In this document: positions 528 through 47,489 of the stretch, piece by piece | Layout of the letters: every line of letters starts with the position of its first letter | How positions within the stretch are numbered: the first letter of the stretch is position 1 | Virus record (IMG/VR): IMGVR_UViG_3300025319_000035 | Direction: 5' to 3' (one strand) | Source: a virus | Length of the DNA: 47,574 nt | Program-made: the position numbers and the translations under genes | Notes under the pieces: model-generated | Database searches by the model: none | Seen by the model: the letters and a program-made list of their open reading frames with translations, nothing else | What the model was told of the DNA's origin: nothing

Positions 528-859
528 AAGCCAAACTAAGAGTTAAAAAATCTGAATATTGCGAGTGCGAAAAAGAAGAATTAAAAGATTATGAATGTCA
601 TTATTGTCATGATGGGCGAGATGTAGATTCAGACTTTCATGATGATTGGAAGATAGTTCACTTAAATGATACTGGTCTTCTTCGTGAAGAAAACTGGATG
701 TTTCAATGTCCAGAATGTGATGTTGAATATTACAATTATTCAAAGGTTGGTGATGGTGGAGCTGGTGGAGAAGAATATAAAATCTTACCAGATGATACAA
801 GAATTGAAAAATATAAACCAAGAAAAGATTACAATGAACCATTGAGGTGTAATTACTAA
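524..859 (+). CDS. Cys-rich putative Zn-ribbon protein
   Basis: CEC, CHYCH and CPEC motifs; coupled on both sides. Confidence 0.65.
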   Translation: MKAKLRVKKSEYCECEKEELKDYECHYCHDGRDVDSDFHDDWKIVHLNDTGLLREENWMFQCPECDVEYYNYSKVGDGGAGGEEYKILPDDTRIEKYKPRKDYNEPLRCNY

Positions 860-959
860 TGAATTTTAGTATTCTAAAAGATAAGAGTGTATTATTGACA
901 ATAAGTTTTGTTGCTGGTTCATTCTTAATACTTTGGATTGATCAAGGAGTCATTAGGAT

Positions 960-1103
960 ATGAAAACATCTTGCAGTTTATGTGGTCAACCATTTGAGAA
1001 ATTAGATCCAGATTTAGAGAAAAGAAAACTAAGACATGAAGGACATCATTCACGTAGAAATCTTTCAAAGAACCAGATTATCGATAAGGTGAAATGGCTT
1101 TGA
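960..1103 (+). CDS. Small Zn-finger-like protein (47 aa, below ORF-track cutoff)
   Basis: MKTSCSLCGQPFEK...RHEGHH; ATGA overlap with a 34-aa upstream ORF (859-963). Confidence 0.5.
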   Translation: MKTSCSLCGQPFEKLDPDLEKRKLRHEGHHSRRNLSKNQIIDKVKWL

Positions 1104-1309
1104 AGAAATTTTATTTTGCTTTTCTTGTACTATTTTGCGTGTTTGGATATGGCTTACACACATTTTCAACTGTAGTATCATCGGTAGATTGTTTGAATAT
1201 ACCTAGTGATAAGGTAGTTCAGAACGGAGAGATTGATCCTCTAATAATAAATCCAATAGACAAAACTATTTCATTACGCGATTTATGTCTAGGAGTTAGA
1301 AATGGATAA
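1094..1309 (+). CDS. Small protein with N-terminal signal/TM segment
   Basis: KKFYFAFLVLFCVFGYGL; SD AAGGTGA upstream. Confidence 0.55.
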   Translation: MALKKFYFAFLVLFCVFGYGLHTFSTVVSSVDCLNIPSDKVVQNGEIDPLIINPIDKTISLRDLCLGVRNG

Positions 1310-33559: not shown

Positions 33560-34167
33560 AGTCTTTACGAGAAATAGCCGAGTCATTGTCAATAGCAGTA
33601 ATTATGATCTGCGTCTTACTTCCCATAAGACTGTTTTTTGTAACTTACATTAACACACACTGGCTTGGGAGTCTTGGAGTAATCTCCATAGTTTCATTTG
33701 CCATCTTATTTCTAGCAAAAAAGAACAAACTAGGCTGGTTTGGCAGGGCATTTATCAGGCAGACCTTTAAGATAAACAAAGGAAAAAGGAAATATTTTGT
33801 TTATACAAATCTCGCTATAACGCTAATTTACTTTGGCTCAATAATTTATGGAGTTGAATTATCTAACGAACAATTTCTAATGGAAAAAATTGAGGTAAAG
33901 GAAAAACTTGGTACAGAGTCAATTGAAGAAATAATGACAAGCGATAAGGTGGATGTAAGAGATGTTCCAAAAGCACTTTTAATGCTAGTTTACATTTTCT
34001 TCTTTCGGTTTGATATTTACGCAGTTTTGATAGGAACAATAAACGATATGACTCAAGGCTATCTACTTCATTTTTCAATTGTATTTACTGTCGAGGTCTT
34101 GGAATTGCTTGGCATACTGATCTTTTCAAGGTTCTATCTTAAAAAAGAGGACATTTCTTTTAAATAA
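33556..34167 (+). CDS. Multi-pass membrane protein, paralog of 3312-3950
   Basis: See 3312-3950. Confidence 0.8.
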   Translation: MKSLREIAESLSIAVIMICVLLPIRLFFVTYINTHWLGSLGVISIVSFAILFLAKKNKLGWFGRAFIRQTFKINKGKRKYFVYTNLAITLIYFGSIIYGVELSNEQFLMEKIEVKEKLGTESIEEIMTSDKVDVRDVPKALLMLVYIFFFRFDIYAVLIGTINDMTQGYLLHFSIVFTVEVLELLGILIFSRFYLKKEDISFK

Positions 34168-34173
34168 GTCAAC
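34155..34173 (+). promoter_or_regulatory. Putative late promoter, copy 1
   Basis: TTCTTTTAAATAAGTCAAC (archaeal TATA box TTTAAATA). Confidence 0.7.
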
Positions 34174-34186
34174 AGTTTATTGACAT

Positions 34187-34250
34187 CTAGCGTTCAACCT
34201 CATTTACGCTTGTCAGTCTTGGTCATGTAGATCGAGGCTGGCAATTCTTT
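34187..34250 (+). ncRNA. Candidate ~60-nt small structured RNA
   Basis: Begins 29 nt after TATA copy 1 with no start codon; CCTC-ATTTAC/GTAGAT-C-GAGG stem; ends in TTCTTTTT. Confidence 0.3.
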
Positions 34251-34277: not shown

Positions 34278-35360
34278 GTGGCAAGTTCATCACTGACAAA
34301 CGTACTGATCATAGGAACAGTAATCTTTGCAATCGCGATGATCATTCCGATCTTCTTTGATGTTGACTTTCCCCAAAGAGGGGATACAATAACATTTGTA
34401 GACAAAGCGATTTGTACCATAATTCCAAACGGAGGGGGAAACTATACTTGTTTAACACCAGATGATACAGTATTTTTCAACGGAACTGGTTTAACTATTA
34501 CAGCTAATGATACAGAAAGAACAGTATTTTTTGCAGTTGATGCAAACGGTACAATAACAACGTGTTCAAATATTGGCCCTGGTTTTGGCATTTGTTCTGG
34601 GCCAGTTTTTTCAACATTAGAATTTAAAAGCCTAGTTGCAGGCACAGATATTAACATAACAAGTGATGCAAATTCATTAACAATTGATTTTGCTGGAACT
34701 ATATCTGCTGGTGAAAATACAACCGCAACCTCATTAGGTGGAGATACAGATGTTTTTGAAAGTCAGGTAGGTGATCAGCTAAGATTTAGAGGTTTAACTG
34801 CTGGTCAAAATATTATTCTAACTCAAAACGCAAATGATATAGTAATTAACTCAACTGATACAAGTGGAGTAAAATTTGCAATCCTAACAGCAGGTGGTGC
34901 AACACTTCAAACACCAGCTTCCTCAACTCCACAGCGAGATACCCAGGCTGGAACTAACTTCGATTATCTTGCATTAGAATATGATGCTACAACTTCCGAA
35001 GAAGTGGTTTGGCAGTATCAATTTCCAACTGATGCAGATGGCACACAAAATGTTAATGTTCTGATAAGATTCCTAACTCCTACTGGCTCAGCAGGTGGAG
35101 TTTGTTTCTCAGGCCAGTTTCTAGGTAGAGCAAACACAGAACCCTATGATGTTGCTATGGGTACAACTATCACTGGTTGTGATACAACCTTGGATACAGC
35201 AGGTGACATAAACGAAATAACACTTACATTTACTACTGGACAACATGGTTTAACTGCTGGCGATACAGTAGTTTTCAAACTTGCTAGGGATACAGCAAAC
35301 GGAAGCGACACTCATGCAGGTGACGCATGGTATATCGATTCAAGGGTGACTTGGAGTTAA
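34278..35360 (+). CDS. Putative virion fibre/adhesin
   Basis: N-terminal TM; two repeats LEFKSLVAGTDINITSDANSLTI / LRFRGLTAGQNIILTQNANDIVI; T/G/D-rich beta C-terminal domain; many NxT sequons. Confidence 0.6.
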   Translation: MASSSLTNVLIIGTVIFAIAMIIPIFFDVDFPQRGDTITFVDKAICTIIPNGGGNYTCLTPDDTVFFNGTGLTITANDTERTVFFAVDANGTITTCSNIGPGFGICSGPVFSTLEFKSLVAGTDINITSDANSLTIDFAGTISAGENTTATSLGGDTDVFESQVGDQLRFRGLTAGQNIILTQNANDIVINSTDTSGVKFAILTAGGATLQTPASSTPQRDTQAGTNFDYLALEYDATTSEEVVWQYQFPTDADGTQNVNVLIRFLTPTGSAGGVCFSGQFLGRANTEPYDVAMGTTITGCDTTLDTAGDINEITLTFTTGQHGLTAGDTVVFKLARDTANGSDTHAGDAWYIDSRVTWS

Positions 35361-39613: not shown

Positions 39614-40609
39614 TTACGTATTAAACTTAAAGCTACCAATCCATTTATCTAAATTGCCAACTAAAATTCCAATGAGCAAGGAAATTCCAGTGATCAACGG
39701 AACAAACCTGTATGGCCATACATCATAACTCGACATCCCAATCAAGATTGGAGATGTAAATATTATCCCATAACAAAATATAATTGCTGGAAGACCTTGA
39801 CGAATCCTTTTTGTAATCAACAACGTTGTAGCAAATATCAAAAATACAACAGTAAATTGATCGTGGGCAAATCCTTTCCAGATCCAGCTAACAAATCCCA
39901 TAAAAAACTGTTCAGAATCAAACCTATCAATCAGTAAAAGGGATTTACCAATATCATCAATTAAATAAATTCCAGTGATTCCAAGCAAAACAACAGCTAG
40001 ATATAAAATAATTATAACTAATTTGTTCAAGTTCTTATCAATTAAGATAAAGAGCAGAAGTGCAGGAAGAAATAATATTGTAATTGATTTGGCAAGGACT
40101 GATAATACAAAAAATACAGGGGAAAATACATAAAATTTAGTCCTTGTAAGGTACAAAGATAGAATAAAAAACAAAGACCAGAAGCTAGGATAGGTTACAG
40201 AAGTATCATAATTGAAGAAGATCGAGCTTTGCAAGGTAACAAGAACCGCAATAACGCTTGCAATTCTCTTTTGTGTAATAGAATAAACAAGTTTGTAAGT
40301 AACAGCAAGGATCAAAATACTTGATACAAATGGCAATACATTATAATTTCCAAATGTAATTTGACTAAGTTCGAGCAATCCCATATGGACAGAGTGCCTC
40401 CAATCATCCTTAATCCATGATAAATCCCACACATACAGCCTAGCCATCCGCCTGTCAAAATCAAAACAGTTTCTATATCCACTACACTCAGATTGAAACA
40501 ATTCAAAGCTGGTTAACACAATATATCCAGCAAAAATTACAAGCATTACATAGAAAGTCTGTCTTTTTGTAATCTCAAAACTGGCAATTTTCTGAATATC
40601 CAATTGCAA
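39614..40609 (-). CDS. GT-C fold (PMT/ArnT-like) integral membrane glycosyltransferase
   Basis: About 9 TM; YNVLPFVSSILILAVTYKLV...LVTLQSSIFF...FFILSLYL...LSVLAKSITILFLP pattern. Confidence 0.65.
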   Translation of the reverse strand: MQLDIQKIASFEITKRQTFYVMLVIFAGYIVLTSFELFQSECSGYRNCFDFDRRMARLYVWDLSWIKDDWRHSVHMGLLELSQITFGNYNVLPFVSSILILAVTYKLVYSITQKRIASVIAVLVTLQSSIFFNYDTSVTYPSFWSLFFILSLYLTRTKFYVFSPVFFVLSVLAKSITILFLPALLLFILIDKNLNKLVIIILYLAVVLLGITGIYLIDDIGKSLLLIDRFDSEQFFMGFVSWIWKGFAHDQFTVVFLIFATTLLITKRIRQGLPAIIFCYGIIFTSPILIGMSSYDVWPYRFVPLITGISLLIGILVGNLDKWIGSFKFNT

Positions 40610-40664
40610 ACCAACTTGTTTTGTGCTATAAGAGATTAGTTTTTAGGCCAAAAATACTCATTTT

Positions 40665-40705
40665 TGTCGGACATTGGGCAATAATTTTCTTTTAAATAAG
40701 TCCAC
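40665..40705 (+). promoter_or_regulatory. Putative late promoter, copy 3, with TGTCGGACA palindrome
   Basis: TGTC-N-GACA (40665-40673) 18 nt before TTTAAATA; motif TTCTTTTAAATAAGTCCAC 40687-40705. Confidence 0.75.
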
Positions 40706-40720
40706 ATTTAAGGTTCTTTA

Positions 40721-40804
40721 ATGGTACAATCACTAGGCTTACTACATAGTAGAAATAGTACGGTTAGTACCCATTTTACTTTTAAAGGAGGTGAAATGAC
40801 TTAG
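40721..40804 (+). other. Leaderless upstream ORF (MVQSLG...GGEMT, 27 aa)
   Basis: ATG 30 nt after TATA start; its TAG overlaps the TTA first codon of the hairpin gene. Confidence 0.55.
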
Positions 40805-41031
40805 TTTTATCATTAGGCTTTATTCTAGCCTTCATTGGTGCAGCAGTAGCATTACTTATTGGAATACTTATCTTCTCAGAAGTATCTGACGCAATCAACT
40901 GTCCAACTGGACAGGGTAGCACAGAGTGCCAAAACGCAAAAGATACTGCATGGACTGTTATAGGTATTCTTCCAGTAGCACTATTCTTTGCACTGTTCGC
41001 CATATTCGGTGCTTTAGGCGGAAGACAATAG
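40801..41031 (+). CDS. Putative major capsid (or pilin-like) hydrophobic hairpin protein A, 76 aa, non-canonical start (TTA)
   Basis: (L)VLSLGFILAFIGAAVALLIGILIFSEVSDAINCPTGQGSTECQNAKDTAWTVIGILPVALFFALFAIFGALGGRQ. Homologous to the array genes; SD GGAGGTGA 6 nt upstream; own promoter and terminator. Confidence 0.8.
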   Translation, partial: LVLSLGFILAFIGAAVALLIGILIFSEVSDAINCPTGQGSTECQNAKDTAWTVIGILPVALFFALFAIFGALGGRQ

Positions 41032-41037
41032 AAAAAA

Positions 41038-41074
41038 TTCGGTTGCTAATCACAACCAAATTTCTCTTTTTTTT
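41038..41074 (+). terminator. Hairpin plus T-tract terminator
   Basis: GGTTG-CTAATCA-CAACC followed by TTTCTCTTTTTTTT. Confidence 0.7.
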
Positions 41075-41111
41075 AATAAAATCATAATAAAATTTTACTA
41101 CATCCATAATT

Positions 41112-41152
41112 TGTCAGACAACAGGCAATTATTTTCTTTTAAATAAGTCCAC
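41112..41152 (+). promoter_or_regulatory. Putative late promoter, copy 4, with TGTCAGACA palindrome
   Basis: Same palindrome-to-TATA spacing (18 nt) as copy 3. Confidence 0.75.
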
Positions 41153-41167
41153 AATCAAGCTTCTTGT

Positions 41168-41200
41168 ATGGTACGATCACTCGGTGGTGAAATCTCATAG
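41168..41200 (+). other. Leaderless upstream ORF (MVRSLGGEIS)
   Basis: ATG 30 nt after TATA start; TAG overlaps the ATA first codon of hairpin gene B. Confidence 0.55.
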
Positions 41201-41427
41201 TTTTATCATTAGGCTTTATTCTCGCATTTATCGGTGCAGCAGTAGCATTGTTAATTGGAATACTTATCTTCTCAGAAGTATCTGATGCAATCAACTGTCC
41301 AACTGGACAGGGTGCTACAGAATGTGCAAACGCGAAAGACACAGCATGGACTGTTATTGGTATTCTTCCAGTAGCATTATTCTTTGCATTGTTCGCCATA
41401 TTCGGTGCATTAGGAGGACGAGAGTAG
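41197..41427 (+). CDS. Putative major capsid (or pilin-like) hydrophobic hairpin protein B, 76 aa, non-canonical start (ATA)
   Basis: Near-identical to protein A (differs at the start codon, ATECAN and the C-terminal E); SD GGTGGTGA 6 nt upstream. Confidence 0.8.
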   Translation: MVLSLGFILAFIGAAVALLIGILIFSEVSDAINCPTGQGATECANAKDTAWTVIGILPVALFFALFAIFGALGGRE

Positions 41428-41439
41428 AAAAGAATCCAG

Positions 41440-41472
41440 GGTTGGTAAAACAACCAAACTTCTCTTTTTTTT
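41440..41472 (+). terminator. Hairpin plus T-tract terminator
   Basis: GGTTG-GTAAAA-CAACC then CTTCTCTTTTTTTT; same stem as 41038. Confidence 0.7.
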
Positions 41473-41493
41473 ATTACCCACAAAAACAAGTTT

Positions 41494-41512
41494 TTCTTTT
41501 AAATAAGTCAAC
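41494..41512 (+). promoter_or_regulatory. Putative late promoter, copy 5
   Basis: TTCTTTTAAATAAGTCAAC; ATG of a 7-aa uORF (41527-41550) 29 nt downstream. Confidence 0.7.
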
Positions 41513-41540
41513 AAAAAATCATTCTTATGGTGTTTCTACT

Positions 41541-41828
41541 ATTGCTGTAGCTATAATTATCATCGCCACTTTATCTATCATCGCAACTGTAATGGCAGTT
41601 TTAGCTTTAGCTCCTATGATTGATCAGCTTGGTAGCTCAAATGATCCAGAAGGACATTGGAGTGAAACTCAGGCAAAGGCAGATGGTGGTGACATTTATG
41701 CTCAACATGCAATAGAATCTCGTGACAGAACATTTCAAGCAATTCTTGTTTTACCAATATTTTTAATCGGTGCTATTGTAGCTTGGGCATTTTTGGCCGT
41801 TACGAGGAGGGATTTTGGCGAGGTATGA
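41541..41828 (+). CDS. Divergent two-helix hairpin protein C (start uncertain: ATT 41541, GTA 41547 or ATG 41592)
   Basis: IAVAIIIIATLSIIATVMAVLALAPMIDQL...AILVLPIFLIGAIVAWAFLAVTRRD. The ORF-track start at 41322 lies upstream of a terminator and promoter and is unlikely. Confidence 0.65.
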   Translation: MAVAIIIIATLSIIATVMAVLALAPMIDQLGSSNDPEGHWSETQAKADGGDIYAQHAIESRDRTFQAILVLPIFLIGAIVAWAFLAVTRRDFGEV

Positions 41829-42667
41829 TTAAATTTGTCAGTATTAATAAAAAAAATATGATATTAAGAAATAAAAAAGGACAATTCAAAAAAGGAAACC
41901 AAAAAGGAATTCCATTATCTAAAAAAACAAAAAGAAAAATCGGTCTAGCCAATAAAGGAAAACCAAATTGGAAGAAAGGAACAAAAGGATTACAACTTCA
42001 CTCAGAAAAAACAAAAAGACTCATCTCCCTTCATAATAAAGCAGGCACAAAAGCAGTAAGAGAAAAAAATCGTAAATGGCATTTAGGAAGAAAATTAAAT
42101 TCAAAACATAAATTAAAAATAGCAAAAGCAATAAAAATAAAATGGAAGGATTCACAATATAGAAAAAATCATCATGAAGGAATGTTAGGATTACAAAATA
42201 CTTTAGGAACAAAACAATCCAAACAAACAATTGCAAAACGAATGAAAACAATGAAGCCGATCTTCAGTTCAGAAAAATATAAATCCAAACAGAGAAAAAA
42301 CAGACTTCACCAAGTTTTTCCAACAAAAGATTCAAAACCAGAAAGAATGGTTCAACAAATGCTAAAAGCCAATGATATTGAATATCAGACTCATTATCCA
42401 ATTATCGGCCAGCCTGATCTTTTTGTAAAACCTTCAGTTTGTATCTTTGTTGATGGATGTTATTGGCATGGTTGTAAGAGATGTCATCCTAAGATATGGG
42501 AAAAATACAGACAAATCTACGAGCAGATAATGTACGATAATGAGATCACTCATACATTAACAGTACGCGGTTACTATGTGATCAGAATTTGGGAACATGA
42601 AATTACTCCTAACAATGTAGAAGTTGCCAAAAATGTAATAAAAATAATCGGGATGGCTCGTAGTTAA
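41825..42667 (+). CDS. Free-standing homing-type endonuclease: NUMOD3-like basic repeats plus Vsr/DUF559 nuclease domain
   Basis: PLSKKTKRKIG, HSEKTKRLIS and QSKQTIAKR repeats; SKPE...GQPDLF...IFVDGCYWHGC...GYYVIRIWEHE. ATGA/TAATG coupled. Confidence 0.8.
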   Translation: MIKFVSINKKNMILRNKKGQFKKGNQKGIPLSKKTKRKIGLANKGKPNWKKGTKGLQLHSEKTKRLISLHNKAGTKAVREKNRKWHLGRKLNSKHKLKIAKAIKIKWKDSQYRKNHHEGMLGLQNTLGTKQSKQTIAKRMKTMKPIFSSEKYKSKQRKNRLHQVFPTKDSKPERMVQQMLKANDIEYQTHYPIIGQPDLFVKPSVCIFVDGCYWHGCKRCHPKIWEKYRQIYEQIMYDNEITHTLTVRGYYVIRIWEHEITPNNVEVAKNVIKIIGMARS

Positions 42668-43446
42668 TGGTTCTTAGTCTTCCTTTCATACTTGCTTTCA
42701 TCGGTAGTGCAGTTGCATTAATAGTTGGCATGGTAATTTATGGTGACATTTCAGAGGCAATCGAATGTCCTGCTTCTGGTGGAGGTGGTGCTGGTGGTGA
42801 TCTATTCAATACTTTAGGGTTACTACCTGATGGTGATGGTGTAGATATGGAAGTACACCGCATCTCAGGACAATTAATAACATTATCAAACCAACAAATA
42901 GAATCTGTCACAGTAAATAATATAGATTCGGCTTCTAACAGTAATGGTATTTTAAATGCAGTAATCTATTCAGGAGTATCTAATAATACAGCATTTGGTT
43001 CTACAACATTAGAAGCAACATCCGACTCTATTGATCTGTCTGATGGTGCATATGCTTTCAACAGTGATTTTGATATTACATTTAACTTTACATCTGCACC
43101 AACATTATCAGGTTCAGATATTGTAATTGCTTTAGAAGTAGTTGGTGAAGATGATCAATTATTTCTAGAAGCTGTTGATACTGATATTGGTGGAAATGAA
43201 GGTATTGCTATTACAAAAGAAAATACTGAATTTTGGGTATTAAATCCAATCATCGAAAATCATCCAAATCTAGCAGAGGATATTTTAATGCAAGTCACAT
43301 TAGCTGGTGGTGGCCCAGCCGAAACTGGTTCAGAACAGTGCCAACAGGCAAAAGATATTTCTTGGACTGTAATAGGAATAATTCCAGTCGCATTATTCTT
43401 TTCCCTATTTGCAATATTTTCTGCACTAGGTACAGGAAGGCAGTAA
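42667..43446 (+). CDS. Hairpin-scaffold protein with ~190-aa passenger (module X), array member 1
   Basis: Conserved N-terminus MVLSLPFILAFIGSAVALIVGMVIYGDISEAIECP and C-terminus GSEQCQQAKDISWTVIGIIPVALFFSLFAIFSALGTGRQ. Confidence 0.9.
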   Translation: MVLSLPFILAFIGSAVALIVGMVIYGDISEAIECPASGGGGAGGDLFNTLGLLPDGDGVDMEVHRISGQLITLSNQQIESVTVNNIDSASNSNGILNAVIYSGVSNNTAFGSTTLEATSDSIDLSDGAYAFNSDFDITFNFTSAPTLSGSDIVIALEVVGEDDQLFLEAVDTDIGGNEGIAITKENTEFWVLNPIIENHPNLAEDILMQVTLAGGGPAETGSEQCQQAKDISWTVIGIIPVALFFSLFAIFSALGTGRQ

Positions 43447-43449
43447 CAA

Positions 43450-44634
43450 TTGGTTCTAAGTTTACCATTCATACTTGCTTTCATTGGTAGTGCAGTTGCA
43501 TTAATAATTGGCATGGTAATTTATGGCGATATTTCAGAGGCAATCGAATGTCCTGCTTCTGGTGGTGGAGGACAGATGACATCATCTGCACCAAACACAG
43601 GATCATTTTCTAATGCTGATGGAGAATATTTTGAAAATGGAATACAAACTAACTTTAATGTAGTAAGTGGAATATTAAACAACGGAGTTTTGCAGGAAGG
43701 TACTGCAAGCTTGGAGGATCAAGGCGAGATAAGATTTGGAACAAACTCACAATGGGATTTTCTTCATACAGTTGATAGTGTAAATAGCAACAAGACAAGT
43801 ATTAATTTTTGGATAAAGGGAGATGTAGATGCTGCCTCAACAGAAGTTCCACTATTATCAACAATGAATAAAAATGCTGGTGATAATGACGGATTCATTT
43901 TTTACGCATTTAACGACACATCCCTTGGTGCTGGTAGTGCAGATTTATGGATTGAAATAGATGAGGCTGGTATAAACATAGTTAATCGTTCAACTGGTGG
44001 AGGACAATTTGGTATGGGAATACCAGCAAATGATGGTCAGTGGCATATGATTACATTGATTATGTATAAGGGGTGTGGACCAGGATTCGTGAATCAATTT
44101 AATAATCCTACTTGTTCAAACGCAACTGAAAGTGAAACTTTCGGTAACTTTGCTCACTTATGTATTGATGGTAATGGATTTGGATGTGGTCAGATGGGAT
44201 TTCAACCAGGATTTCCAAATCCCTTTACAGGTTTAGGTGGCACATCAGGTAAAACACTAACAGTCGGTGGCAATCATTTTATTAACGGTATATCAGAAAA
44301 AAGTTTTCAAATTGATGACTTGACAATTTGGCATGGTTACATCTTAAAGAGTGGAATATCTGATCCAAACGGTAATGATGTTACTAATTTATACAATGCA
44401 GGTGTTGGTTCTTCTGCTGGTGCAACAGGATTAAACATAGCACCACAATTTCAGGTTCTTCATGTTAACTTTGATGCAGTTGTAGAAGGAGGTGGAGGAG
44501 GATCACCAGAAATAGGTTCAGAACAGTGCCAGCAAGCAAAAGATATTTCATGGACTGTGATAGGAATTATTCCAGTCGCATTATTTTTCAGTCTATTTGC
44601 AATCTTTTCTGCACTAGGTACAGGAAGGCAGTAA
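43450..44634 (+). CDS. Hairpin-scaffold protein with LamG/ConA-like passenger (~325 aa), array member 2
   Basis: Same termini; SINFWIKG, GQWHMITL, LCIDG, LTVGG, IDDLTIW and NLYNAG. Confidence 0.9.
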   Translation: MVLSLPFILAFIGSAVALIIGMVIYGDISEAIECPASGGGGQMTSSAPNTGSFSNADGEYFENGIQTNFNVVSGILNNGVLQEGTASLEDQGEIRFGTNSQWDFLHTVDSVNSNKTSINFWIKGDVDAASTEVPLLSTMNKNAGDNDGFIFYAFNDTSLGAGSADLWIEIDEAGINIVNRSTGGGQFGMGIPANDGQWHMITLIMYKGCGPGFVNQFNNPTCSNATESETFGNFAHLCIDGNGFGCGQMGFQPGFPNPFTGLGGTSGKTLTVGGNHFINGISEKSFQIDDLTIWHGYILKSGISDPNGNDVTNLYNAGVGSSAGATGLNIAPQFQVLHVNFDAVVEGGGGGSPEIGSEQCQQAKDISWTVIGIIPVALFFSLFAIFSALGTGRQ

Positions 44635-46371
44635 ATGGTTCTTAGTCTTCCTTTCATACTTGCTTTCATCGGTAGTGCAGTTGCATTAATAGTTGGCATG
44701 GTAATTTATGGAGATATTTCAGAAGCTATTGAATGTCCTGTTGATGAGATAATTGGTGGTGGAGGGGATTCTGATGCAAGAGTTTCTTTAATCTCACAAA
44801 CATTTGATGAAGAACCAATCGATGTAGCTGGTGATTTTAGTGGCGATGTTGGATATATTGGTCATCTTTTATCTGGTGGACAAGATATTTATTCAAACAG
44901 TTTTAAGGTAAGTGGAATTTTTGCACACTTTAGAGCAGGCAGTACACCAACAAACGGAACAATGAGTGCAGTTGTTCTTTCAAACGTAATAGAGGGTGGA
45001 TTATTTGGAAGTGAAGTTGTTGAAACAACAAGTAGCAATTCATTAGACCTTACTACATTACCACTAGCATCAAACATTCAACCTTTAAGAAATGCTACCC
45101 CAAAGTGGAATAGTTTTTTATTTACATTCACCAACCCACCAACACTTAATGATTCTACGGATATGCTATTTGGATTTAAAATTGATGGATTATCTAGTGG
45201 TGCATTTGAATTTGCTTCTTTTGGATCTGGTGAAACAGGAGGTGGAACTTGTTATTTCAATACAGCAGGAAGTGATAGTTGGAATACTTGCAGTGTTACT
45301 GCATTAGGACTTGAAATTCAATTATTAGTAGAGGATGTAACAGATTTTGAAACAACAGGAGGTATTAATCCAAGTGCATTATTAATCCATCATACTTTTG
45401 ATTCAAACACAAGATTTGATAGTGCGATTGATGATACATTATATGTAAATGCTGGAACATTAGGACATGATGGAGATATTTCAGTATTAAACTATGAGAA
45501 GCATCAAGACGATTTTAGTACATGGGTTACTGCTGGAAAAGTTGGTGACGGTGCAGTATTTGTTGGTGATGTAGGTGCAGATGCTAATGCAGAATTAGAA
45601 ATTGGATTTTCTGAAAATGCAGTAACAGAGGAATGGACATTTTTGCATAGTGAATTAGGTAATTTTGGTGCTGTTGATGGCTATTCAATTAACTTATGGT
45701 TAAAAGGTCAATGGACTGATCTATTTGGAACAAATTTTGTACCAATTTTATCTGATCTAGATACAGAACCATTATTTGCTACAGATGGAATGGTATTGGG
45801 AATTAATGGTACAGGTGAAATATTTTATAAATTAGCTACTGATATTGATTCACCGTTTAATGAAGTAACATCAACTCTTGGTGGATTAACAGATAACACA
45901 TGGAGTATGGTTACAATTGTTGTTAATCAAGAACCACAACCACCATTTACTAATTCTGAATTAACTATGTGTATTGATGCTACTTGTCAAATCGTAAATA
46001 ATACAGGTGCATTTGATAAACAATTTTTCATTCCTAACAGATTAACAATTGGTAATGGATTATACATGGATGACTTTATTTCACTTAATGTATTTGCCGA
46101 AAAAATAGACTTTAATATAGACCAACTTTGTATTTGGAAAGATCATCAACTAATCCAATCAGAAATAAATACACTGTATAATTCTGGTGCTGGTACAACT
46201 TGTGGAACTGTTAGCGGATCTGGTGGTGGAGGAGGAAGCGAAGCTCAAGTAGGTTCAGAACAATGCCAACAGGCAAAGGATATTTCTTGGACTGTAATAG
46301 GAATTATTCCAGTCGCATTATTTTTCAGTCTATTTGCAATATTTTCAGCACTAGGTACAGGTAGACAATAA
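44635..46371 (+). CDS. Hairpin-scaffold protein with module X plus LamG passenger (~509 aa), array member 3
   Basis: Same termini; first half resembles the member 1 passenger, second half is LamG-like (SINLWLKG, WSMVTI, MCIDA, IDQLCIW). Confidence 0.9.
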   Translation: MVLSLPFILAFIGSAVALIVGMVIYGDISEAIECPVDEIIGGGGDSDARVSLISQTFDEEPIDVAGDFSGDVGYIGHLLSGGQDIYSNSFKVSGIFAHFRAGSTPTNGTMSAVVLSNVIEGGLFGSEVVETTSSNSLDLTTLPLASNIQPLRNATPKWNSFLFTFTNPPTLNDSTDMLFGFKIDGLSSGAFEFASFGSGETGGGTCYFNTAGSDSWNTCSVTALGLEIQLLVEDVTDFETTGGINPSALLIHHTFDSNTRFDSAIDDTLYVNAGTLGHDGDISVLNYEKHQDDFSTWVTAGKVGDGAVFVGDVGADANAELEIGFSENAVTEEWTFLHSELGNFGAVDGYSINLWLKGQWTDLFGTNFVPILSDLDTEPLFATDGMVLGINGTGEIFYKLATDIDSPFNEVTSTLGGLTDNTWSMVTIVVNQEPQPPFTNSELTMCIDATCQIVNNTGAFDKQFFIPNRLTIGNGLYMDDFISLNVFAEKIDFNIDQLCIWKDHQLIQSEINTLYNSGAGTTCGTVSGSGGGGGSEAQVGSEQCQQAKDISWTVIGIIPVALFFSLFAIFSALGTGRQ

Positions 46372-47489
46372 TGGTTCTTAGTCTTCCTTTCATACTTGCT
46401 TTCATCGGTAGTGCAGTTGGGTTAATAGTCGGTATGGTAATTTATGGCGACATCTCAGAAGCTATCGAATGTCCTGTTGATGGAGGTGTAGGTGGGGGAG
46501 GTCTGACAAATGTAACAAGTTACGATAACTTGGGAACATTAGGATCTATTGCAGATGCTACATATGCTGAATTTGAAGTTGTAGCAGAGTTTCTACCACC
46601 CATCACAGGAAGAATAAATGAAGGGGTAAGACAAGAAGGAACGGATAGTGGAGATTCAAACGGAGAAATTTATTTAGGATCAACACCTTCAACTTGGGAT
46701 TTCTTACATAATAGTGATATTGGTTCAGAAAAAATCAGCATAAACTTATGGGTACGTGGTAACCTTAATACAAGTAGTGCTAGCATAATTGTTCCAATAC
46801 TTACTAACACTTGTGGTGTATTTTTTGAAGGTATAGAACAATGTTCTAATCCGATTTCAGGTGGTGAAAATGGAGTTTACTTACACACAAGAGGATCACC
46901 TGAAATCCCTTTCAGTGAAACAACAGAACTAACAGTAATAGTAAACAATAGCACACAGATGTCACAAGAGGTAGATGATGTTCCATCAGATGATGACTGG
47001 CATATGATAACAGTATTATATAATAAAACAATTGGATTCGGTAAGATTTGTATCGATGGTTCATCAAACTGTGGTGTTGATGGAACAGCAGGTTGGGATA
47101 GTGCTGGTTCAGCAATACATAGATTAACAATAGGTAGTGACAATGATGTTACACAATCAACAGATCATCTTGAACTTACATTCGAAATTGATGATCTGAC
47201 ATTTTGGCATGGGTACACTTTAACAGATACCGATATAGATAATTTATTCAATGGGGGTGCTGGTGCATCTGCTGGTTCGTCAGGTTTAGCAATTTCGGTT
47301 GCAACCCAAAAAGGTCACTGGAATTTTGATAACCCAACTGCAAATGGAGTTAGTGGTGGAGCTCAAGTAGGCTCAGAACAGTGCCAGCAAGCAAAAGATA
47401 TTTCTTGGACTGTAATCGGAATTATTCCAGTAGCATTATTTTTCTCATTGTTTGCAATCTTTTCAGCACTAGGTACAGGCAGACAATAA
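46371..47489 (+). CDS. Hairpin-scaffold protein with LamG/ConA-like passenger (~303 aa), array member 4
   Basis: Same termini; SINLWVRG, DWHMITV, ICIDG, LTIGS and IDDLTFW. Confidence 0.9.
   Translation: MVLSLPFILAFIGSAVGLIVGMVIYGDISEAIECPVDGGVGGGGLTNVTSYDNLGTLGSIADATYAEFEVVAEFLPPITGRINEGVRQEGTDSGDSNGEIYLGSTPSTWDFLHNSDIGSEKISINLWVRGNLNTSSASIIVPILTNTCGVFFEGIEQCSNPISGGENGVYLHTRGSPEIPFSETTELTVIVNNSTQMSQEVDDVPSDDDWHMITVLYNKTIGFGKICIDGSSNCGVDGTAGWDSAGSAIHRLTIGSDNDVTQSTDHLELTFEIDDLTFWHGYTLTDTDIDNLFNGGAGASAGSSGLAISVATQKGHWNFDNPTANGVSGGAQVGSEQCQQAKDISWTVIGIIPVALFFSLFAIFSALGTGRQ

Follow-up and report, generated by a model that had tools for sequence, protein, structure and literature searches.

Viral genes without a canonical start codon behind leaderless upstream ORFs, and their possible translation by Shine-Dalgarno-tethered termination-reinitiation

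The genes for two 76-codon hairpin proteins, MCP1 and MCP2, in the viral DNA of IMG/VR record IMGVR_UViG_3300025319_000035 have TTA and ATA, respectively, at the position where their homologs carry the initiator ATG, and each lies directly behind a short upstream ORF (uORF) that opens at a leaderless ATG and whose stop codon overlaps this non-canonical first codon. The observed arrangement is real and goes beyond assembly error or chance. From the sequence comparisons described below we propose that these two genes, together with a neighboring gene 3, may be translated by Shine-Dalgarno (SD)-tethered termination-reinitiation that would be independent of the restart codon, a reading that we regard as evenly poised between right and wrong. 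The features involved, within the window (the whole stretch of 47,574 nucleotides that was analyzed), are as follows.

40690..40700, + strand: MCP1 late-promoter box TTTTAAATAAG with the TATA box inside it, present in four copies in the window
40721..40804, + strand: uORF1, 27 codons, ATG at the ancestral leaderless start position
40772..40798, + strand: predicted 12-bp hairpin (minimum-free-energy fold) within uORF1, sequestering the MCP1 SD
40786..40794, + strand: MCP1 SD element AGGAGGTGA, 6 nt before TTA, the end of its GGAGG 9 nt before codon 1
40801..41031, + strand: MCP1, two-helix hairpin protein, 76 codons, codon 1 TTA
41137..41147, + strand: MCP2 promoter box, a copy of TTTTAAATAAG
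41168..41200, + strand: uORF2, 10 codons, from a leaderless ATG
41183..41190, + strand: MCP2 SD element GGTGGTGA, 6 nt before ATA, the end of its GGTGG 9 nt before codon 1
41197..41427, + strand: MCP2, paralog of MCP1, 76 codons, codon 1 ATA
41497..41507, + strand: gene 3 promoter box, a copy of TTTTAAATAAG
41527..41550, + strand: uORF3, 7 codons, from leaderless ATG 41527, with a 14-nt insertion
41541..41828, + strand: gene 3, two-transmembrane protein, 95 codons, codon 1 ATT

A motif search located the four copies of TTTTAAATAAG at 34158, 40690, 41137 and 41497, and the ATGs of uORF1 (40721) and uORF2 (41168) each lie 31 nt after their own copy. Measured from the start of the TATA box, the ATGs of uORF1, uORF2 and uORF3 are found at 29, 29 and 28 nt, and the true starts of 25 canonical relatives at 28-32 nt; by this spacing, with the transcription start predicted from position, all three uORF ATGs are placed as leaderless starts. 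The TAG of uORF1 (40802-40804) overlaps codon 1 of MCP1 (TTA, 40801-40803) as TTAG and that of uORF2 (41198-41200) overlaps codon 1 of MCP2 (ATA, 41197-41199) as ATAG. Three codons 5' of codon 1 the main frame is closed by a TGA in both genes (40792 and 41188). There is no in-frame ATG, GTG or TTG across the whole MCP1 ORF, and the first canonical in-frame start codon of MCP2 is a TTG at codon 18. The distance from the uORF ATG to the NTA codon is 80 nt for MCP1 and 29 nt for MCP2, the difference being a 51-nt in-frame, stop-free stretch, and the insertion duplicates the first six codons of the gene into a copy A within the uORF and a copy B (VLSLGF). The original prediction had described these ORFs, upstream TGAs, SDs, uORFs, overlaps and the 51-nt insertion, and every one of them was found where it had been placed. 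Chance is an insufficient account because GGAGGTGA has its single occurrence in the 47.5-kb window at the MCP1 SD, 6 nt before TTA, because MCP1 has no canonical in-frame start codon at all and because the uORF ATGs stand at leaderless spacing.

Assembly error, a concern that accompanied the original prediction, is countered by contigs from four independent DNA runs, which are identical to the window with 0 differences over 40400-40887 and 40888-41283. Word depth was approximately 37-150 in three of these runs and approximately 20-70 in X15, which also contains a diverged strain. The same arrangement is present in ten further public contigs, and the virus occurs in samples from aquifer, sediment or soil. 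A search of IMG/VR for further members of the lineage recovered one weak locus by protein scan and none by the exact 25-nt pattern, and a search of 40500-41700 against Rfam returned only two chance-level rows with E values of 4-7. It had also been anticipated that standard gene callers would miss the MCP genes, and this is indeed the case, as the public annotations miss both and call antisense ORFs across MCP1 and MCP2.

Gene 3, which lies outside the two genes of the original prediction, has the same anatomy. Its homologs start MAVAIIIIATLS from a leaderless ATG, and the first canonical start within gene 3 itself is an internal ATG at 41592. A GGTG lies inside uORF3, 10 nt before codon 1, with the uORF3 ATG overlapping this SD (AUGGUG). 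The TAG of uORF3 is 7 nt downstream of the first base of gene 3 codon 1 in the window and likewise in the X15 strain, and the L065 haplotype has an MCP1-like TTAG overlap. Among the natural haplotypes, codon 1 of gene 3 is ATT, TTA, TTT or TCG, and the uORF ATG, its length and the nearby TAG are all retained. Variant B instead has, as its upstream ORF, a 238-aa HNH endonuclease gene that has been inserted there and that ends in the stop context TAA-C-TCG. This HNH gene was found in L059-L064/L068, and a Vsr-like gene is located at 41783-42667 of the window. Such a nuclease gene between a promoter and a structural gene is present or absent among near-identical genomes.

The arrangement is derived in this lineage from plain leaderless genes, as judged from sequence comparison, because the relatives have canonical leaderless starts and no uORF. 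Specifically, approximately 50 related loci (L002-L058 plus 42 metagenome loci) have a plain leaderless ATG with no insertion, and this ATG is preceded by the same promoter box. MCP1 shares 95-96% identity with canonical 76-aa homologs starting MVLSLGF, and the first 20 nt of uORF1 are similar to the ATGGTACTGTCACTAGGCTT start of relatives. Relative to these genes each of the three carries an insertion of 3n+2 nt, amounting to 80 nt in MCP1, 29 nt in MCP2 and 14 nt in gene 3. Homologs with canonical starts and no uORF had been named beforehand as an observation that would count against the original prediction; such homologs do exist, but the finding itself survives them. Three apparently N-terminally truncated homologs, P0086, P0088 and P0092, were rejected as gene-caller choices, with canonical starts located upstream.

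The pattern of substitutions indicates that MCP1, MCP2 and gene 3 are functional, evolve under strong purifying selection and have clearly been kept working. MCP1 and MCP2 differ with a dN of 0.037 and a dS of 0.473 (dN/dS of approximately 0.08), and MCP1 retains the ancestral residue at all three sites that vary between them. Codons 9-12 of the two genes have synonymous differences only, indicating that translation of MCP2 begins upstream of codon 9. For gene 3, the haplotypes exhibit 7-9 synonymous and 0 nonsynonymous changes over codons 2-17, 19-20 synonymous and 0 nonsynonymous changes over codons 18-95, and 0 synonymous and 4 nonsynonymous changes over codons -3 to 1. Thus, constraint holds from codon 2 on, which places the N-terminus at codon 1 and leaves codon 1 free to vary, as would be expected if the initiator tRNA supplies Met. 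The start of the MCP genes is likewise confined to the 9-nt stretch between the TGA and codon 2, where AUG, GUG and UUG are all absent. All of this comparative evidence fits the non-canonical initiation that the original prediction proposed, the part of it that fares poorly being the splice or bypass offered as an alternative. The suggestion of an SD-driven or reinitiating start also holds up well, with SDs at the spacing typical of the window and an upstream stop that always overlaps or adjoins codon 1.

We propose the following sequence of events for these three genes, which sit side by side and are late or structural. The mRNA would start at the ancestral leaderless AUG, where ribosomes would load and translate an out-of-frame uORF of 27, 10 or 7 codons or, in the natural variant, the inserted 238-aa HNH endonuclease gene in place of the uORF. 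Termination would then take place at a stop that shares bases with, or lies next to, the Met1-equivalent codon (TTAG, ATAG, TAA-C-TCG or a TAG 7 nt downstream), the SD 9-10 nt upstream would keep the small subunit in place, and translation would restart at this fixed position regardless of the codon, TTA, ATA, ATT, TTT and TCG all being observed there. Use of the 5' AUG, dependence of the downstream gene on upstream termination and a first residue of Met from initiator tRNA are the inferred parts of this scheme.

Several features are consistent with this proposal. For AGGAGGTGA, GGTGGTGA and GGTGGGGA, which precede MCP1, MCP2 and variant-B gene 3, respectively, the distance from the end of GGWGG to codon 1 is 9 nt, and in other genes of the window the GGAGG-to-start distance is 4-11 nt and most often approximately 9. 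An upstream ORF, either a uORF of 5-27 codons or the HNH gene, stops 0-7 nt from codon 1 in six of six contexts, with TTAG in MCP1, L065 MCP2 and L065 gene 3, ATAG in MCP2 and TAA-C-TCG in variant-B gene 3. The frame offset of this upstream ORF is +2 in five of the six contexts and +1 in the remaining one, so that it is proximity of the stop rather than frame that is conserved. In L065, codon 1 of MCP2 is TTA instead of ATA and the TAG is retained. The MCP1 leader adds a structural element, as the minimum-free-energy fold of 40721-40840 reaches -30.4 kcal/mol (z = -2.74, with 3 of 200 shuffles as good), and translation of uORF1 would open the predicted hairpin that buries the MCP1 SD. Folding is significant for MCP1 alone; the corresponding 5' regions of MCP2, of variant B and of gene 3, the last in both its window and its L065 form, fold no better than shuffles. 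A precedent for codon-tolerant restarting is found in the rRNA-tethered systems of influenza B BM2, murine norovirus and feline calicivirus, which accept non-AUG codons (PMC3035654, PMC2793014).

There are also observations that weigh against such a restart. In TTA, TTT and TCG only one position matches the initiator anticodon, and we know of no natural prokaryotic or archaeal system that starts on codons of this kind. Reviews list AUG, GUG and UUG as the only archaeal start codons (PMC7531240). In addition, the precise overlap of stop and start carries less weight than it might seem to, because ATGG becomes ATAG by a single G-to-A change. A UAAUG overlap would have kept an AUG reachable in the same frame, and loss of the AUG is left unexplained by this reading. 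The restriction of significant RNA folding to MCP1 likewise counts against it.

An unlikely alternative is that initiation is led de novo by the SD at a non-canonical codon with no need of the uORF, such that the insertion turned a leaderless gene into a leadered one with a very strong SD and left the uORF as a relic or mild competitor. The SD matches perfectly along 9 nt and is optimally spaced, genes led by an SD are frequent across the window, where 17 of 75 ORFs carry one that is 5 nt or longer, and a free codon 1 followed by constraint from codon 2 would fit any start that is defined by position. However, an AUG at the 5' end, in the conserved leaderless position, should capture ribosomes, and that of gene 3 even shares bases with its SD, while in MCP1 the SD is sequestered in the predicted hairpin. 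The uORF also keeps its ATG, its length and its stop beside codon 1 across haplotypes where the adjacent spacer varies and has indels, as is evident for uORF2, whose 29 nt are near-invariant across three haplotypes with a variable TATA-to-ATG spacer. Start-codon proofreading by aIF1 is moreover expected to be strictest in de novo initiation (PMC8211752).

Joining of the uORF to the gene, either by a -1/+2 shift or hop at a 'shifty stop' of the uORF, by a bypass like that of gene 60 or by removal of the insertion at the RNA level (for example as a bulge-helix-bulge, or BHB, intron), is in our estimation quite improbable. In its favor, all three insertions are 3n+2 nt long, excision of 80 or 29 nt from MCP1 or MCP2 would restore MV-SLGF, and MCP2 has a UCA-UAG followed by an in-frame UCA 11 nt later. 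T4 gene 60 also has an SD upstream of its landing site, and fusellovirus VP1 is synthesized with an N-terminal leader that is then cleaved, such that an N-terminal extension might be tolerated. However, the stretch from the main-frame TGA to codon 1 contains no slippery heptamer of the form X XXY YYZ, the 6 nt from SD to codon 1 vary among copies (GAC, CTC, CAC, AAC) unlike a conserved shift site, and take-off and landing codons, compared by eye, match in MCP2 alone and are unmatched in MCP1 (ACU) and gene 3 (CUG). Exact excision has no need of a 3n+2 length, and it is copy B (VLSLGF) that is the conserved copy, copy A having Q or R at a family-invariant L. A constrained BHB scan of all in-frame junction pairs, for which the motif is a 4-bp helix between two 3-nt bulges at the junctions plus flanking helices, found weak, chance-like AU/GU helices only, which were unshared among the three genes and which need 5' sequence upstream of the leaderless start. 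Finally, the upstream ORF of variant B is a whole nuclease gene, read in the +1 frame, that offers no duplicated N-terminus for joining. The splicing or bypass across direct repeats that accompanied the original prediction thus finds no support, given the lack of a consistent BHB motif, the lack of consistent take-off and landing codons and an HNH variant that has nothing to join.

We consider it very improbable that the three genes were recently inactivated and that coat function comes from the canonical-start array genes at 42667-47489, which encode the same two helices. Such a scenario would account for the lack of a canonical start in MCP1, MCP2 and gene 3, and the array genes, with ATG or TTG starts, do have the same N- and C-terminal helices. 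It is countered by the MCP1-MCP2 dS of 0.47 at a dN/dS of approximately 0.08 with the insertion common to both, by the gene 3 haplotypes, all of them startless, that have 26-29 synonymous and 0 nonsynonymous codon changes, and by ORFs that are all intact in each strain encountered, across many samples and at high depth. That the sequencing or the assembly went wrong, or that an alternative genetic code is in use, has a negligible probability, given the identity among four runs and the ten further contigs and a TAG that terminates MCP1, MCP2 and their homologs at one common residue. If TGA were read as sense, the frame would run into a TAA after another three codons upstream without passing a start, and a search for virus-encoded tRNAs that might serve the odd starts found no tRNA genes in the window.

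Returning to SD-tethered termination-reinitiation, its arrangement likely originated, although this is a weaker part of our proposal, when homing endonuclease genes inserted between the leaderless start and the ORF and later decayed. That the short uORFs are remnants of nuclease genes has as its sole support an alignment in which 18 of 21 nt of the MCP1 cassette match the 3' end of the HNH gene, a score reached by 5 of 300 shuffles. Free-standing homing endonuclease genes of phages are the comparison system for the HNH and Vsr-like genes found here; like the HNH gene, they are located between promoter and structural gene, are translationally coupled and are variable in presence or absence. More broadly, and with rather more doubt than confidence, we suggest that the start may be defined by position and not by codon, such that an SD-held archaeal small subunit would, after termination, begin 9-10 nt downstream on any triplet as a natural counterpart of the calicivirus TURBS mechanism, with the uORFs being homing-endonuclease scars that may block re-cleavage.

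Among known systems, the termination-reinitiation (TeRe) gene pairs share an upstream ORF on the same strand that ends within the downstream start, the overlap being 4 nt (NTAG has the geometry of ATGA), an SD upstream of the restart site and an occurrence in lineages dominated by leaderless mRNAs (PMC6728339). Judged as a TeRe pair, the arrangement described here has the stop-start overlap or adjacency and the upstream SD, which is frequent but not obligatory in TeRe, and lacks the canonical restart codon of ATGA or TGATG. The restart codon here is never AUG, GUG or UUG (it is TTA, ATA, ATT, TTT or TCG), the upstream ORF is usually a leaderless uORF of 5-27 codons rather than a full gene, and a plain leaderless gene is the ancestral state. 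TURBS of caliciviruses and of influenza B BM2 resemble our model in that mRNA-rRNA pairing tethers the post-termination small subunit before an overlapping stop/start, and in that the tether sets the restart position and mutants accept non-AUG codons (PMC3035654, PMC2793014). These elements are, however, eukaryotic, approximately 70 nt long, pair with helix 26 of 18S rRNA and naturally restart at AUG, whereas in our model the tethering role would fall to a classical SD and the natural codon is non-AUG. Ribosome shunting in plant pararetroviruses likewise combines a short 5' uORF, a structured element and a non-AUG restart, as for ORF I of rice tungro bacilliform virus, which starts at AUU, and MCP1 similarly has a uORF and hairpins. 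Shunting depends on eukaryotic cap-dependent scanning with no SD, and significant structure is limited here to MCP1. T4 gene 60 and the mitochondrial 'byp' elements share with our genes a gap of tens of nt, a stop following the would-be take-off codon and, ahead of the point of resumption, an SD-like element; they differ in that the genes here have no consistent take-off/landing match, a gap directly after initiation and one variant with a whole upstream gene.

MCP1 and MCP2 are coat-like and probably the major coat proteins of widespread viruses of ammonia-oxidising archaea. An AlphaFold2 model of MCP1 built from 31 sequences is an alpha-hairpin with helices at 5-31 and 40-75 and a mean pLDDT of 86, so that the predicted protein has the size (approximately 70-80 aa) and the two hydrophobic helices with a short loop of SSV1 VP1 and the SSV19-like capsid protein. 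Searches of Pfam and PHROG gave no match for the hairpin protein. In a Foldseek search against the PDB, SSV19 7xdi_A ranked fourth with an E value of 2.8 and a TM of 0.48-0.52, which for a fold this simple is not significant.

If the proposed mechanism is confirmed, archaeal ribosomes would start efficiently on non-cognate codons when delivered by termination and tethered by an SD, which would widen the archaeal start rules of AUG, GUG and UUG and provide a mechanistic link to the rRNA-tethered reinitiation of eukaryotic RNA viruses. The haplotype series, which runs from canonical relatives through three uORF lengths to an intact HNH gene, constitutes a set of natural constructs with which to test the mechanism and suggests how mobile nuclease genes can rewire expression of essential genes. 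As the probable coat genes are invisible to gene callers, virus classification that relies on capsid markers would miss this lineage. Gene 3 is also affected by public calls, which shorten it to 78 aa, and the truncated product recurs in at least 71 blocks of the collection.

Rereading the region confirmed exactly the anatomy described in the original prediction, in which two genes without a canonical start, MCP1 and MCP2, coding for near-identical two-helix proteins, lie behind short upstream reading frames (uORFs). A third gene, gene 3, which codes for a two-transmembrane protein, exhibits the same anatomy:

40721, plus strand: ATG of the MCP1 uORF, 27 codons, 31 nt after a TTTTAAATAAG box
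40786-40794, plus strand: Shine-Dalgarno (SD) of MCP1, AGGAGGTGA, ending 6 nt before the TTA codon
40801-41031, plus strand: MCP1, 76 codons, codon 1 TTA
41168, plus strand: ATG of the MCP2 uORF, 10 codons, 31 nt after a TTTTAAATAAG box
41183-41190, plus strand: SD of MCP2, GGTGGTGA, ending 6 nt before the ATA codon
41197-41427, plus strand: MCP2, 76 codons, codon 1 ATA
41497, plus strand: gene 3 promoter box, followed by ATG at 41527
From 41527, plus strand: gene 3 uORF, 7 codons, with the long transmembrane ORF in the +2 frame

Both MCP genes have an in-frame TGA three codons 5' of codon 1 (the position homologous to Met1 of relatives), and the TAG of each uORF overlaps the NTA codon 1, 80 nt (MCP1) or 29 nt (MCP2) from the uORF ATG. 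No in-frame ATG, GTG or TTG occurs anywhere in MCP1, and TTG at codon 18 is the only early canonical start candidate in MCP2. Gene 3 homologs begin MAVAIIIIATLS with a leaderless ATG; in the window, a 14-nt insertion precedes ATT (41541) at that position, and the three insertions (80, 29 and 14 nt) are each 3n+2. The gene 3 frame is also open for ~220 nt further 5' (41322-41541), through the MCP2 terminator and the gene 3 promoter, and gene callers therefore emit a 168-aa chimeric ORF (public protein call P0137). A palindrome, TGTCGGACA / TGTCAGACA, located 5' of the MCP promoters (40666-40680, 41116-41130) and conserved in a canonical relative (L058:2640-2655), may be a regulator binding site.

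The assembly error that the original prediction had considered is ruled out. At least half of the stretch is present in fourteen public DNA runs (no RNA runs are listed), and contigs of four independent DNA runs show 0 differences from the window across 40400-40887 and 40888-41283, with a word depth of ~37-150 in three of these four. One run also holds a diverged strain in which the arrangement is kept.

The 76-aa family is large, with members that begin MVLSLGF or MLSLGF. We read L002-L008, 42 metagenome loci, L051-L055 and the syntenic close relatives L056-L058, and every readable locus has an ATG (rarely TTG) start and lacks the insertion, so the arrangement of the window is derived. In these relatives, 28-32 nt separate the start codon from the beginning of the same TATA-like box, indicating that their genes are leaderless. 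The window uORF ATGs are 29, 29 and 28 nt from the box start (MCP1, MCP2, gene 3), which is the ancestral start position. Thus, MCP1 and MCP2 are leaderless genes that have gained 80 or 29 nt after their first codons, and this insertion carries those codons a second time, in diverged form, together with an SD.

Between MCP1 and MCP2, 27 of 231 nt differ and 18 of the codon differences are purely synonymous (dN 0.037, dS 0.473); the proteins vary at three sites, and at each of these MCP1 has the family residue. Codons 9-12 differ only synonymously, which shows that MCP2 translation begins upstream of TTG codon 18, and both MCP genes must therefore start within a stretch of 9 nt, after the TGA and before codon 2. 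Ten loci (L059-L068) represent four haplotypes of the gene 3 5' region:

Codon differences in gene 3, window versus other haplotypes
Codons -3 to 1: 0 synonymous, 4 nonsynonymous
Codons 2-17: 7-9 synonymous, 0 nonsynonymous
Codons 18-95: 19-20 synonymous, 0 nonsynonymous

This split indicates that protein-level constraint starts exactly at codon 2. Codon 1 itself is ATT in the window, TTA in L065, TCG in the L059 and L060 types and TTT in a strain in public run X15, and such freedom followed by constraint is what would be expected of a start at codon 1 with a codon-independent residue. The collection has a truncated 78-aa gene 3 call in at least 71 of its blocks. Among MCP2 haplotypes the 29-nt uORF is almost invariant while the spacer from TATA box to ATG varies with indels; in one, TTA replaces ATA and the TAG is retained. 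Judged by substitution patterns, MCP1, MCP2 and gene 3 are real and functional.

In MCP1, MCP2 and L059-type gene 3, GGWGG has its end 9 nt 5' of codon 1, and GGAGGTGA has its single occurrence in 47.5 kb at this site; other window genes have GGAGG or GGTGA 4-11 nt (mostly ~9) before their start. An upstream ORF stops at or adjoining codon 1 (TTAG, ATAG, TAA-C-TCG, or TAG 7 nt downstream). L059-type loci have no uORF here; their upstream ORF is an HNH endonuclease gene of 238 aa (phrog_144 at 1e-7; Pfam HNH 21.2 bits):

L059:532-1248: HNH gene between the gene 3 promoter and gene 3; also in L060, L061, L063, L064 and L068

It starts with a GTG in the leaderless position of the gene 3 promoter, 28 nt from the start of the box, and 1 nt separates its end from gene 3 codon 1; it is read in the +1 frame, the uORFs in the +2 frame. 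The common factor across these sequences is closeness of termination to codon 1, not frame. Genomes with and without the HNH insertion are otherwise near-identical, and the HNH-bearing type and the window haplotype are found together in samples (loose end at 41517, public run X5). Among the canonical-start array genes, the second (43450) has a TTG start 4 nt after the stop of the first and the rest have an ATG abutting or overlapping the preceding stop, indicating that canonical coupling is in use beside the non-canonical cases.

In line with the original prediction, we infer that (re)initiation at an SD-fixed position alone accounts for all six contexts. Termination-reinitiation at a codon-independent site, to which we give about an even chance, is favoured because ribosomes should load on the 5'-terminal AUG at the conserved leaderless position, because uORF start, length and stop are all conserved, and because the MCP1 SD lies inside a predicted hairpin (z = -2.74) that uORF translation would open. 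SD-supported termination-reinitiation has been demonstrated experimentally in an archaeon, where SD motifs contribute more to reinitiation than to initiation de novo (PMC6728339, PMC7531240), and non-AUG restart codons are tolerated in the rRNA-tethered reinitiation of influenza B, murine norovirus and feline calicivirus (PMC3035654, PMC2793014). For archaea, a 2021 review lists neither bypass nor natural restart at non-AUG codons (PMC8211752). De novo SD-led initiation at a non-AUG codon is a serious rival, albeit an unlikely one. Recoding or joining of frames, including the splice or bypass of the original prediction, is more doubtful still: there is no slippery heptamer, the stretch from SD to codon 1 is variable, only MCP2 has take-off and landing codons that match, and the L059-type variant offers nothing to splice or hop between. 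Searches found no consistent bulge-helix-bulge motif, no tRNA genes in the window and no Rfam family in the region. That the genes are dead is very improbable, as pseudogenisation is contradicted by the substitution patterns.

In regards to origin, the 21 nt 5' of MCP1 codon 1 share 18 of 21 positions with the HNH gene 3' end, both being placed alike with respect to codon 1; 5 of 300 shuffled sequences did equally well. Nuclease genes once located between promoter and ORF may have left the short uORFs as remnants. What looks like a second mobile nuclease gene of the same cluster is found downstream:

41783-42667: Vsr/NUMOD3/DUF559 nuclease gene between gene 3 and the first array gene

L062, L065 and L066 carry it too; L059-type genomes lack it and have an array gene (TTG start) directly 3' of gene 3.

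As predicted, gene callers miss both MCP genes, and in related locus L062 antisense ORFs that are almost certainly spurious are called instead:

L062:492-713 and 849-1190, minus strand: calls over MCP1 and MCP2, 73 and 113 aa
Window 40782-41003 and 41139-41489, minus strand: antisense ORFs over MCP1 and MCP2, 73 and 113-116 aa

The MCP model is a confident alpha-hairpin (pLDDT 86), a predicted fold compatible with spindle-virus coat proteins; sequence and fold searches with the MCP protein gave no significant match, and 'capsid-like' is therefore plausible, not proven. Finally, in the stretch 34158-34245, a late-promoter box copy lacks a start codon where a leaderless gene would begin, and 90 nt downstream of the copy at 34158 lies a second box, with its leaderless GTG at 34278. 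The copy could be a dead promoter or serve a small non-coding transcript.
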